In this document: piece by piece, positions 12,740-16,879 of the stretch
Position numbering within the stretch: position 1 is the stretch's first letter
How the letters are laid out: each line of letters begins with the position of its first letter
Assembly: GCA_964022095.1 (NCBI GenBank)
Contig: CAXHZO010000003.1
Span: 96,001 to 160,000, forward strand
Direction: 5' to 3'
Origin: an uncultured Arcobacteraceae bacterium
Lineage (GTDB): Bacteria > Campylobacterota > Campylobacteria > Campylobacterales > Arcobacteraceae
DNA length: 64,000 nt
Notes under the pieces: generated by a model
Databases searched by the model: none
What the model saw: only the letters and a program-made list of their open reading frames with translations
Told to the model about the DNA's origin: nothing
Position numbers and translations under genes: made by a program

Positions 12740-14590
12740 CTATTCCTCTATGTTATTAAAATAATTATATATAACTATTGCATCTTTTTCATTTAAAACA
12801 TTTTTTAATTCTTCTGCTGATGCATTTTTGATTTTTTCAAACTCACCAAAGTAAAGAAGTAGTTTTTTTACTTTTGCTTCACCTATACCTTTTATTTGTA
12901 AAAGTGAAATTTGCTTGTCTTCTTTTCTTTTTTGTTTCTTATGATAGTTTATTACAAATCTATGAGACTCATCTCTTTGTCTTTGTACAAATTGTAATCT
13001 TTGATCACTAGGAAGTAATTTTAGTGATTTAAATTCACCACTTGACGTTTTATAGTGAACTATATCATTTGCTTTACCTTTAGCTCTGTGAGCTTTAGCA
13101 TCAACTTTCTCTTTTGCTATTGCAATTATATCTAAATTTACTCCGACAGATTGGACAATATCATATGCTAATTTTAATAAAGTCTCTCCCCCATCAATCA
13201 CCCATAAATCTGGTGCAGGGTTCTTTTCAAAGCTTTCAACTCTTCTCATTAGCATCTCTCTCATTTGAGAGTATTCATCTTTTGATTCTAAATTATAATG
13301 TCTAAACTGCTTTTTATCCCAACCATTTACTTGTTCATTCCAAACTACCATTGCTCCAACGGTTGCTTGTCCCATCATATGTGAGTTATCAAAACTCTCT
13401 ATTAAATATGGATTTACATTTAGATTAAATAGTTTTTTTAATTCATCATAAATTGAAGTTTGGTTTTTTGTTGAGTCGATTCTTAGAAGTTCATTACAGT
13501 TGTTTATTGCAATTTGAACAATATCTTTTTTCTTGTCTTTTTTTGGATTAGTAATTTTTATTTTTTTACTAAATCTAGCATATAAAAAATCTTCTAATTC
13601 TTCTTTATCTTCTAATTCAATTGCCGTTAAAACTTCTTTTGGAAGTAGGGGAATTTCATTATCATAATAGTTTATTATTGCTCTTTTATATGCTTCTTGG
13701 TAGTCAAAGTCACTATTGTCTTCTAGATTATCAATTCTTAAAAAATCATGGCTTGAAGAAGTTAATTTTCCATCTCTAATAAACATTCTAACTACAACTG
13801 CTTTTTTATTTGAAGTTGTAATTGCGAAGATATCGATATTTTCATTTGTAGCTAAATCCATACCTGACTTGATTTGGGACTTTTCTATAGTTTTAATTCT
13901 ATCTCTTAATTTCATGGCATCTTCAAATCTAAACTCTTCTGAGTCTTGCATCATCTTTTCATTTAGTTTTGTGATTAGTTTGGATTTGTTATAGATATAA
14001 CTTAGTGCTTCTTCAACTATTTTTGAATATTCACTAGTTGATATTTTACCTTCACAAGGAGCATGGCATCTTTTTATTTGGTGAAAAAGACAAGCTTTTT
14101 TCTCTTTTATACAAGATTTTTTTTGAACCAAAGGTACTATCTCATAAATACTATCTAACATATCTCTAGCACCAGTTGAGTATGGCCCAAAATATTTTAG
14201 ATTTTTGTTTTTATGAACACGTCTTGTTATTTCAAGTCTTGGAAATAGTTCATTATTATCTAAATAAATATATGGATATGTTTTATCATCTCTTAATAAT
14301 ATATTGTATTTTGGTTTTAATTGTTTTATCAATGAATTTTCAAGTATAAGTGCATCATGTTCATTTGGAACTACAATCCATTCTAAGGTTTGAACTTCAC
14401 TTATCATTTTATAAATTCGAGGGCTTAATTTATCTGAGGGTAAAAGTTTTGGAGTAAATTTGAAGTATGATTTAACTCTATTTTTTAATACTTTAGCTTT
14501 TCCTACATATAATAAATGCCCATCTTTATTAAAATATTGATAAACACCTGCATCATTAGGTAGTTGCTTTAACTTTTCTTCTATATTCAT
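12740..14590 (-). CDS. uvrC: Excinuclease ABC subunit C
   Basis: GVY..YVGKAK GIY-YIG, DDKTYPY, FDNSH, IDGG, RDESHRF, HhH GIGE. Confidence 0.97.
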
Positions 14591-14689
14591 TTTGGAATAT
14601 TACCCTAATATCTTTTAAATATAATAATATTAATAAAAAGTTGTTTATTGTAAAATGATATTTAAAATAAAATTAACTAAGAGATTTAA

Positions 14690-15376
14690 ATGCCAGGAAG
14701 ATTAGCAATATTTGATGATAAACAATTTAAACAAGATGTAGTAGAATTCATTAAGCATGATATGGTTAATGAATTGAATCCAAAATATAATATTCCTCCT
14801 ACTATGCCAATTCCAACATTACTAAATTCTGGGGATTATTTATATGCTCACTTTGGGTATTTACCTTCATGGGCAAAAGATAAAAAAAGTATGAATATAA
14901 ATGCAAGAAGTGAGTCTATTTATGAAAAAAGAACTTTTAGAGACTCTTTTAAATTTAAGCGTTGTATTATTCCCATAAATGGATTTTTTGAATGGGAAAT
15001 TGAAGATAAAGAAAAAACGCCGTATTTTATAAAAGATAGTATAAATGATTATTTAGCAGTTGGTGGAATTTGGGATGAGTATTTTGATAGTGAATTAAAT
15101 ATGAATATCGTTACTGTTGCATTAATTACATGTGATGCAAATGAAAAGTTAGGGAAAATACATCATCGTATGCCAATTGTTTTAGAAAAAAAAGATTTTA
15201 AAACATGGCTGTATAGTGATGATTTAAAAGAACTTAATTCTTTGTTTAATATTTACCCAAGTGAGAAACTTGAACTTTTTACTGTCTCATCAAATGTTAA
15301 TAAAGTTTCATTTGATGAGATTTCTTGTATTTCAAAAGTTCAAGAAGTTAAAGTTGGACAACAATCTCTTTTTTAA
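14690..15376 (+). CDS. SOS response-associated peptidase (SRAP/YedK/HMCES family) with N-terminal MPGR
   Basis: YNIPPT, INARSE, RCIIPINGFFEW, IHHRMP, VSSNVN motifs. Confidence 0.92.
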   Translation: MPGRLAIFDDKQFKQDVVEFIKHDMVNELNPKYNIPPTMPIPTLLNSGDYLYAHFGYLPSWAKDKKSMNINARSESIYEKRTFRDSFKFKRCIIPINGFFEWEIEDKEKTPYFIKDSINDYLAVGGIWDEYFDSELNMNIVTVALITCDANEKLGKIHHRMPIVLEKKDFKTWLYSDDLKELNSLFNIYPSEKLELFTVSSNVNKVSFDEISCISKVQEVKVGQQSLF

Positions 15377-15918
15377 TTGTTTAATAGTTTTAAAATATCA
15401 TCTTCTATTGACATAGGATTAGTTGTACTTCCAAATCTATCAACAACATTACCCTTTTTATTTATTAAAAATTTTGTAAAATTCCATTTAATATCTTCAG
15501 TACCTAAAATACCTGGTTGTTTCGTTTTTAAAAATGTATAAAGTGGCGATTCGTTTTCTCCATTTACATCAACTTTTGAAAACATATCAAAGTTTACACC
15601 ATAAGTTAGTCTACAAAACTCTTTTATTTCTTCATTTGTTCCTGGTTCTTGGTTTGCAAATTGATTTGAAGGGAAACCTAAAATCATAAACTCTTTATCT
15701 TTATGCTTTGCATAAAGATTTTCTAAATCTTTGTATTGACCAGTAAAACCACATTTACTAGCAACATTTACAATAAGCAATACTTTACCTTTATATTTAG
15801 AAAGACTTATTTCTTTTCCATCTATATCTTTTACTGAAATATCATATAAATTCATACTTTTTTCCTTTGAAATTAAAGAAGTTACTAACAGAAAAATAGA
15901 AACTATAATTTTGAACAT
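15373..15918 (-). CDS. Glutathione peroxidase (Cys type), probable signal peptide
   Basis: VNVASKCGFT, GFPSNQF, KWNFTKFL. Confidence 0.95.
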   Translation of the reverse strand: MFKIIVSIFLLVTSLISKEKSMNLYDISVKDIDGKEISLSKYKGKVLLIVNVASKCGFTGQYKDLENLYAKHKDKEFMILGFPSNQFANQEPGTNEEIKEFCRLTYGVNFDMFSKVDVNGENESPLYTFLKTKQPGILGTEDIKWNFTKFLINKKGNVVDRFGSTTNPMSIEDDILKLLNN

Positions 15919-15997: not shown

Positions 15998-16879
15998 TTA
16001 TATCTCTTCTGTTAGAGTATATTTTTCTATTAACTCTTGAAATCTTTCATCATCAATAATATCAAAGAAGAACTTATCTTTTTGAAGTTTTTCAACATAT
16101 TGTTCACTTAACTCAAGAGCTTTTCCTAAGTCTTCAATACAGTAATCAATTTGTGCTAAAGTATAGTGAACTTTTGCTCTTTGGTAAAATGCATTTGAGA
16201 ATTGATCATCAATTTTAATAGCTTGATTTACTAAGCTTAGTGCCCAATTCGCTTCATCTAATTTTAAAACAGCTTCTGCTTTATAAGTAAGTGCTTCAAC
16301 ATCATCAGCACTTAAATTTAAAATTTCATCATAAATTTCAATTTTACCTAGTGTTGTTGACTCTTTAGATGCTCTCATCCAAAGTGAATAAATAGTATTT
16401 GTTCGTTCAATATTTTTTTGATTTTCTACTACTTGTCTTGATCTTTTTTCTAAGTCTTCTTCAAAAAGGTTTAATCTATCTTCATAATTAGAAATAGTAT
16501 CAGATATTTTTACATCAATATCTGCTCTTACTTTTTTATTAATATCTTTGATTGAACTCCAACCCATTAAAACTAAAAAAGATGAAGCAGCTGCAATAAT
16601 ATAAAACATATTATTGATTGTTGAAGTTGCATAGTTGATTACATTATTTGACATTTCAATCTCTTTTTTTGCTAAAGTTTGATGTAATTCAACTTTTAAA
16701 TTTCTATTCTCTTCTCTTAATGTTTTTAATTCATTTAAAATGTAGTTTTCTACAAATGGGTTGTAAAGTGGTTTTTCTAAACTATTTAATTTTTTATCAA
16801 TCTTATCTTTTGTTGTTGTTTGGTTTGCAAATATAAATTGCACAGACAGGATTAATAAAATCATAAATAGTTTTTTCAT
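15998..16879 (-). CDS. Membrane-anchored coiled-coil TPR protein
   Basis: Signal peptide, coiled coil, one TM, C-terminal TPR helices; 1 bp from ask stop. Confidence 0.8.
   Translation of the reverse strand: MKKLFMILLILSVQFIFANQTTTKDKIDKKLNSLEKPLYNPFVENYILNELKTLREENRNLKVELHQTLAKKEIEMSNNVINYATSTINNMFYIIAAASSFLVLMGWSSIKDINKKVRADIDVKISDTISNYEDRLNLFEEDLEKRSRQVVENQKNIERTNTIYSLWMRASKESTTLGKIEIYDEILNLSADDVEALTYKAEAVLKLDEANWALSLVNQAIKIDDQFSNAFYQRAKVHYTLAQIDYCIEDLGKALELSEQYVEKLQKDKFFFDIIDDERFQELIEKYTLTEEI

Follow-up and report, generated by a model that had tools for sequence, protein, structure and literature searches.

A SRAP gene with proline at the second residue

The stretch analysed here, 64,000 nucleotides of an uncultured Arcobacteraceae bacterium (below, the window, whose numbering is used for all coordinates), carries on its forward strand at 14690..15376 a gene for a SRAP-domain protein of 228 amino acids plus a stop codon, recognised from the list of open reading frames (ORFs) and from a match to Pfam PF02586. 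This gene, the query in all comparisons below, opens with ATG CCA GGA AGA, i.e. MPGR, and the CCA codon at 14693..14695 places a proline (Pro2) where, in an alignment with Escherichia coli YedK (reference sequence from NC_000913), the nucleophilic Cys2 of YedK and HMCES is found. The start and the other SRAP motifs had been singled out in a previous sequence-only reading of this DNA, and all of them are present on the same strand: NARSE at 14900..14914, with Asn71 (codon 14900-14902, equivalent to YedK Asn75), Arg73 (YedK Arg77) and Glu75; the Glu101-Trp102 pair of GFFEW at 14990..14995 (Glu101 codon 14990-14992, YedK Glu105-Trp106); and the His158-His-Arg160-Met-Pro162 stretch of IHHRMP at 15161..15175 (His158 codon 15161-15163), whose His158, Arg160 and Pro162 are equivalent to YedK His160, Arg162 and Pro164. 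Between the last two lies Leu145-Ile146-Thr147-Cys148 (15122..15133), where Leu145 falls on the pocket site of YedK Ile147, Thr147 is the counterpart of YedK Thr149, and Cys148 is typical of the clade described below.

An in-frame TAA (14687..14689) directly abuts the ATG, so that no longer N-terminus of the SRAP is possible and Met1-Pro2 is fixed; AAGAG is located 8 nt before the ATG. The sequence-only reading considered a point sequencing error unlikely since CCA is not one step away from a cysteine codon, and in fact CCA differs from both TGT and TGC at all three positions. The same judgement is borne out by a contig (X4) that another study obtained by DNA sequencing, in a run not marked as a possible source of the window, and that is identical over 14557-15257 (0 differences), and by the presence of Pro2 throughout a clade.

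The assignment to the SRAP family is clear. PF02586 was the only Pfam family matched by the protein (E 9.4e-53; score 179.3 bits, cut-off 27.1), with residues 1-206 aligned to positions 1-214 of the 214 of the profile, whereas the NCBIfam model of the YedK-like subfamily (NF007413, PRK09951) scored only 62.8 bits, far under its cut-off of 349. By sequence the nearest solved structures are those of BT_1218 (2f20, E 2e-25), HMCES (5e-16) and YedK (1.6e-12). An AlphaFold2 model based on a 61-sequence alignment (mean predicted local distance difference test score, pLDDT, 94.7) superposes on these three proteins with Z 25.5-28.5 and a root-mean-square deviation (rmsd) of 2.1-2.5 Å over 208-215 residues, the YedK structures including the cross-link 6nua and the Schiff-base complex 8d2m of the C2A mutant (Z 25.6). 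Residue 2 of the model pairs in these superpositions with residue 2 of the chain, at the start of the aligned range, and every structure match with Z of at least 8 was a SRAP structure (Z 20.7-28.5; Foldseek E down to 6e-21). Judged by its sequence, the gene is a clear SRAP homologue in which the functional hallmark of the YedK/HMCES class is missing.

The genome, which is 99.99% complete, has this single SRAP gene and no second one of the Cys2 type. It contains no match to the Fpg/Nei N-terminal domain PF01149, while two HhH-GPD and three Exo_endo_phos (Xth-type) matches are present, as are M24 peptidases. The SRAP cysteine has been termed "absolutely conserved" (PMC3765255) and "invariant" (PMC9436759), and full-text literature searches turned up no account of naturally occurring Pro2 SRAPs, although the supplementary alignments of PMC3765255 and PMC6821365 could hold exceptions.

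Distribution, conservation and origin of Pro2

When N-termini are compared across Campylobacterota, as the sequence-only reading had proposed, MPGR turns out to mark a conserved monophyletic clade rather than one strain. Among the best 120 database hits, which span 67-100% identity to the query, 108 start with MPGR, seven with LPGR (alternative start codon) and three have x-PGR behind a longer called leader, the remaining two being N-terminally truncated; none has Cys at residue 2, and x-PGR is found in 118/118 readable cases. A SRAP gene was detected in 14/37 sampled genomes of Arcobacteraceae and in 0/24 other families of the order, each represented by one genome. When sampling was widened to 401 genomes across the order, it was present in 12/40 of the family, and 380/401 had no match. 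Taking both samples together, 17 genomes of the family have a SRAP, none of them with a second one of the Cys2 type, and all 17 show x-PGR, whereas the intact SRAPs of other families of the order (five loci, L016-L020) are all MCGR.

Two observations on degraded copies may be added here. In four other Campylobacterales genomes (G239, G086, G358 and G078; L024-L030) we saw only SRAP fragments or genes with TGA, TAA or TAG stops; the SRAP family seems to have been lost repeatedly within Campylobacterales. The only other genome of the query's genus has a Pro2 SRAP (L014, G001:C1, at ~1501-2076) with an in-frame deletion of ~41 codons, which removes the His motif of IHHRMP together with the following helix and leaves an open frame of 192 amino acids; this copy has the look of one that is decaying or has been altered.

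Pro2 proteins come in two forms. The query-like form occurs in records titled Halarcobacter, Poseidonibacter, Arcobacter sp. and uncultured Campylobacterales (Pro2 in 15/15 readable), and records titled Arcobacter, Arcobacteraceae, Campylobacterota, Sulfurovum and Sulfurimonas contain a second, more divergent subtype that shares 43-47% identity with the query (7/7 readable); the Sulfurimonas-titled Pro2 records group in the same clade as the query gene. At the nucleotide level we compared 38 Pro2 loci, corresponding to 35 distinct proteins (three loci were fetched from two collections). Their start codons are ATG in 29, TTG in seven and GTG in two, and all four proline codons are in use at residue 2 (CCT 22, CCA 13, CCC 2, CCG 1). 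In 33/37 loci the position of the proline does not depend on how the start was called, for no in-frame ATG, GTG or TTG separates the Met-Pro start from the stop upstream of it, the 38th locus lying at a contig edge. Finally, in a collection of 145 distinct Pro2 proteins, 143 of them full-length, Pro is residue 2 in 143/143 full-length members. A feature common to so large a clade is neither chance nor sequencing error.

The rest of the active site has stayed as it is in YedK. Asn71, Arg73, Glu75, Glu101, Trp102, Thr147, His158, Arg160 and Pro162, and likewise Gly3 and Arg4 (which bear the same numbers in YedK), are each found in 143/143 full-length Pro2 proteins. Residue 2 apart, all positions that have been given a role in YedK are conserved, and this includes the anchor for the phosphates of single-stranded DNA (ssDNA), formed in YedK by Arg77, Thr149 and Arg162. 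The ratio of non-synonymous to synonymous substitution rates (dN/dS) was 0.09-0.24 for the 15 closest genome pairs, at dS values of 0.5-1.6 that are partly saturated. By these comparisons purifying selection has preserved both Pro2 and all the other catalytic residues.

Some positions did change. Defining clade-specific positions as those fixed in the Pro2 clade and different in the 11 nearest Cys2 relatives, we obtained Leu145 (YedK Ile147), Asn69 (YedK Leu73), Cys148, Ser67, Lys153 and Asn183. Leucine is present at residue 145 in 42/42 Pro2 rows of the alignment, as opposed to Ile or Val in all 11 relatives; among the 143 proteins the counts are L 140, I 2 and V 1. In YedK the thiazolidine ring is described as sitting in a pocket of Trp103, Ile147, Thr149 and Pro164 (PMC6821365). 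Its equivalents here are Phe99, Thr147 and Pro162, as in most Cys2 SRAPs, and the leucine that replaces Ile147 in 140/143; going by the alignment, one of the four pocket residues thus appears to have changed along with the nucleophile. The Trp-to-Phe replacement at YedK Trp61 is older than the switch, since the Cys2 relatives that adjoin the Pro2 clade in the tree, four among the nearest 11, have it too. We also considered Cys148, found in 133/143 Pro2 proteins, as a relocated thiol, which is unlikely: it is set with pocket residues 145 and 147 on the same modelled beta-strand (E138-149), where its side chain should face the other way, and 10/143 members of the clade lack it.

To place the switch in the family we examined, from 20,064 hits, the top 150 cluster representatives at 50% identity. 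Cys2 is present in 134 of them, eight have M/V-C-G/A-R behind a called leader, six lack the N-terminal segment, and only the two closest to the query (P0121 and P0122) have Pro2. In a quick maximum-likelihood tree of 98 rows, for which the first four alignment columns had been removed, 40/40 Pro2 rows fell on one side of a branch with a support of 99 in the Shimodaira-Hasegawa-like approximate likelihood ratio test (SH-aLRT). A more careful tree of 62 rows gave the same picture, with 27 Pro2 rows as one clade (ultrafast bootstrap, UFBoot, 100; SH-aLRT 98), although its bootstrap was not fully settled (correlation 0.963). The Pro2 clade is nested within a subfamily of SRAPs from Campylobacterota (its support in the quick tree being SH-aLRT 99), whose other members have Cys2 (L020, L060, the Sulfuricurvum-titled L093, P0125, P0141 and P0123), as do all sequences from other phyla in the tree. 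With the root placed outside the subfamily (the tree itself does not infer a root), the simplest reading is that Cys was replaced by Pro once, in a Campylobacterota SRAP lineage whose present-day carriers would be chiefly marine Arcobacteraceae.

Pro at the SRAP N-terminus was found in 0/80 loci from many phyla that were fetched with a Cys2 Campylobacterales query, admittedly, like the 150 representatives above, a small sample. Inspection by eye showed in 80/80 a Cys right after a start-type residue (M; I or V in two), at or beside profile positions 1-2, the profile match beginning further in for 11 of the 80. As a side observation, many of the Bacteroidota-titled SRAPs (L086-L139) keep Cys2 without Gly3-Arg4 and start with MCYT, MCYQ, MCFH or MCYN, and in the Krumholzibacteria-titled L094 the SRAP is split over two frames (profile 1-90 and 90-221), which suggests a frameshift or an assembly error.

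The neighbourhood of the gene is less telling. Upstream, across an A+T-rich intergenic region of 99 bp (14591..14689), lies a divergent uvrC on the reverse strand (12740..14590; Pfam GIY-YIG, UVR and two UvrC RNase H domains), in exactly the head-to-head arrangement that the sequence-only reading had described. The position is real, but the synteny is only partly conserved and offers no functional evidence: uvrC is upstream and divergent in 7/14 family loci with 1.5-kb flanks and in 10/15 named loci with 2.5-kb flanks, and it is directly adjacent at some loci and 0.6-1.9 kb apart at others. It adjoins both Pro2 subtypes (locus L013), which suggests an old chromosomal position and not a functional unit. 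We therefore rejected the linkage as a clue to function, the two genes being divergent, adjacent in part of the clade, and often split by inserted DNA.

Downstream, a convergent glutathione peroxidase gene (gpx) on the reverse strand (15373..15918; in the ORF list, PF00255, E 1.9e-46) shares four bases at its end with the SRAP stop codon (15373-15376), with no terminator-like hairpin between the two genes. Beyond it an ORF on the reverse strand (15998-16879, 293 amino acids) has a hydrophobic N-terminus and a coiled-coil-like middle and matches no Pfam family at E 1e-5. A promoter scan of 14400-15600 gave eight consensus hits against 9.1 +/- 2.6 in shuffled sequences, i.e. no excess, and no terminator was found in a scan of the same range. 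No sequencing run matching the region is recorded as RNA; two runs that we guess to be RNA (X10 and X12) gave contigs over the 5' part of uvrC and over gpx and none over the SRAP gene, and are uninformative on expression.

Predicted chemistry and its alternatives

The current model, in which SRAP proteins form a stable thiazolidine shield over abasic (AP) sites at replication forks, rests on Cys2 as the defining residue. As described for YedK, an aminopeptidase takes off Met1, and residue 2 uses its alpha-amine to attack C1' of the AP site, whose sugar ring has been opened, so that a Schiff base results. Glu105 and His160 catalyse ring opening and Glu105 also Schiff-base formation, and the Cys2 thiol then closes the thiazolidine (PMC9436759). 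The same study reports that C2A and C2S mutants of YedK form no stable cross-link and instead a borohydride-trappable Schiff base via the N-terminal amine (8d2m), that they cleave AP-DNA by beta-elimination, and that the lyase rate is ~25-fold lower in C2A/E105Q (PMC9436759).

In a protein with no thiol at residue 2 the thiazolidine cross-link is chemically impossible. Methionine aminopeptidase tolerates proline as the second residue, and the nucleophile of Fpg is just such an N-terminal proline, exposed by Met removal and attacking C1' of DNA. The iminium formed by a secondary amine is moreover a strong electron sink that favours beta-elimination. The following course of reaction may then be proposed for the Pro2 SRAP. 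Met1 is predicted to be removed, which would leave Pro2 as the N-terminal residue in place of cysteine. An AP site in ssDNA or junction DNA would be bound via the SRAP channel and the Arg73, Thr147 and Arg160 anchor, as their conservation suggests, and Glu101 and His158 would open the sugar ring as their counterparts do in YedK. By analogy with the amine of YedK C2A and the proline of Fpg, the secondary amine of Pro2 would attack C1' and yield an iminium; without a thiol no thiazolidine should follow, and hence no stable shield of the YedK/HMCES type. The iminium would be resolved by beta-elimination, i.e. strand cleavage by AP lyase activity, and then by hydrolysis, so that the protein would turn over.

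Our leading interpretation, held with about as much confidence as doubt, is that the protein cuts AP sites by way of an iminium at its N-terminal proline. With the same evenly divided confidence we would go further and suggest that in this marine Campylobacterota lineage the SRAP fold may have been converted, so that what was a suicide cross-linker, used once, would now be a lyase that turns over on AP (or 5'-deoxyribose-phosphate, dRP) sites of ssDNA or junction DNA. Such a lyase would replace, not supplement, the canonical shield, and would represent N-terminal-Pro catalysis put to use in DNA repair through an evolution independent of Fpg/Nei. The proposal of the sequence-only reading, a natural Pro-nucleophile SRAP that cuts AP sites, is partly supported: in its favour are the conservation of the clade, the invariant active site under purifying selection, the fixation of Pro2 as residue 2 (33/37 loci) and the published behaviour of YedK C2A and C2S, while Met1 removal, iminium formation and cleavage by this protein are predictions. 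The invariant glutamate also speaks for catalysis. YedK E105A is reported to bind ssDNA more tightly than the wild type (dissociation constant, Kd, 0.12 μM vs 2.2 μM by isothermal titration calorimetry; PMC6821365), so that in YedK the glutamate costs DNA affinity, and the invariance of Glu101 is hard to explain by binding alone.

Several considerations weigh on the other side. What a cell would gain by cutting its ssDNA at AP sites is, as we see it, not evident. The rate constants given for YedK C2A are 0.05 for the lyase step and 1.7 for Schiff-base formation (PMC9436759), and so slow a lyase step implies that cleavage may not be the selected outcome. The gene is also dispensable, being present in only 14/37 and 12/40 of the sampled family genomes, and in the one other genome of the genus the His motif has been removed by the in-frame deletion described above.

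One may also consider that the protein is a transient shield or sensor, which binds AP-ssDNA through a reversible carbinolamine or iminium, or with no covalent bond at all, and lets go without cleavage, as a self-releasing version of the YedK shield. We think this possible but distinctly less probable than cleavage. All DNA-binding and ring-opening residues are retained, as it would demand, yet an iminium on a secondary amine favours beta-elimination, and it is hard to see why selection would swap a stable shield for a leaky one and then keep Pro in 143/143 proteins. The published data on YedK can be read both ways, since YedK's own cross-link can be reversed and C2A forms its Schiff base much faster than it carries out the lyase step, whereas the thiol-less Schiff-base adducts of C2A did lead to cleavage (PMC9436759). 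Whichever of the two applies, the Pro2 SRAP probably cuts damaged ssDNA or only briefly binds it, instead of locking on.

A second alternative, which we consider rather unlikely, is an end-processing lyase of base excision repair, in which the amine of Pro2 would remove the dRP left after incision by an AP endonuclease, or would process ends that carry a 3' unsaturated aldehyde, in organisms that lack Fpg/Nei. The inventory of the genome fits this idea, for it lacks the Fpg/Nei N-terminal domain and has Xth-type and HhH-GPD genes, and so do two properties of YedK, namely that it binds a 3' junction (Kd 0.18 μM) and not a 5' junction (PMC6821365) and that it reacts with 3'-PUA ends (PUA, phospho-alpha,beta-unsaturated aldehyde; PMC9436759). 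Nevertheless, the idea is pure inference; SRAP structures are described as anchoring mainly the DNA 5' of the lesion, which is absent at a 5'-dRP end (PMC9436759), and most of the Campylobacterales sampled have neither a SRAP nor a substitute for it of the Fpg/Nei type (380/401 genomes with no match), so that such an activity is not generally needed.

It is improbable, in our view, that the protein is an inactive remnant, a non-catalytic ssDNA binder or a decaying gene that has lost its nucleophile. The patchy distribution across genomes would agree with decay, as would the internal deletion in the same-genus G001 and the SRAP fragments and pseudogenes in other Campylobacterales. Decay would not, however, be expected to preserve a dN/dS of 0.09-0.24, a Glu and a His that are invariant (143/143) across lineages only 43-47% identical, or a Pro2 that persists through synonymous codon changes. 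Slightly more improbable still is a bifunctional glycosylase, which like Fpg/Nei would attack C1' of a damaged ssDNA nucleotide through Pro2, remove the base and then cleave: the analogy of the N-terminal proline and several substitutions peculiar to the clade and close to the active site (N69, L145, C148) are all that speaks for it, while the SRAP fold has no known base-binding pocket and the residues that read the AP site in YedK are unchanged. Finally, the notion of an artefact, whereby a sequencing error or a wrong start codon hides a normal Cys2, is refuted by the stop codon directly upstream, the identical contig from another study and the 145 distinct Pro2 proteins.

A natural clade that swaps only Cys2 for Pro, with its other catalytic residues under selection, would imply a second chemistry for the SRAP fold, most simply turnover as an AP lyase, an activity seen in SRAPs so far only in the engineered C2A and C2S mutants. 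The Pro2 SRAP thus bears on how one residue may set the outcome at an AP site, protection or cutting, and on how AP sites in ssDNA are handled in bacteria that have neither Fpg/Nei nor a canonical SRAP.

Comparison with known systems

Compared with E. coli YedK and human HMCES, the query shares the SRAP domain over its whole length, the same fold (Z 25.5-26.7, rmsd 2.3-2.5 Å), the Asn/Glu/His residues, the Arg/Thr/Arg anchor and Gly3-Arg4, all within a single-domain protein of ~225 amino acids. It differs from them in having Pro2 for Cys2 and Leu for the pocket residue Ile147, and is only ~24% identical to YedK. A further parallel is offered by the engineered YedK C2A and C2S (8d2m), which likewise present an N-terminal amine without a thiol and act as Glu105-dependent Schiff-base AP lyases (PMC9436759). 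In the query clade, in contrast, the thiol was lost in nature and long ago, its loss has been selected, second-shell residues have changed with it, and the secondary amine of proline would give an iminium and not a neutral imine.

Fpg/Nei proteins (H2TH) use an N-terminal Pro as nucleophile, and the query likewise encodes Pro at position 2, but their fold is unrelated; the query matches only SRAP, without evidence of a base-recognition pocket. Nearest in the tree are the Cys2 SRAPs of other Campylobacterales (L020, L060, L093 and P0125), which share with the query the N-terminal extension GR-x-x-x-F/Y-D/S-D and the Phe at YedK Trp61, and are distinguished from it by Cys2, by Ile or Val at YedK 147, and by Pro, Met or Ala, not Asn, at query position 69. 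Among solved structures the closest by both sequence and fold is BT_1218 of Bacteroides thetaiotaomicron (2f20; Z 28.5, rmsd 2.1 Å over 215 residues), an uncharacterised structural-genomics protein which, unlike the query, is counted among the Cys2 SRAPs (PMC3765255).

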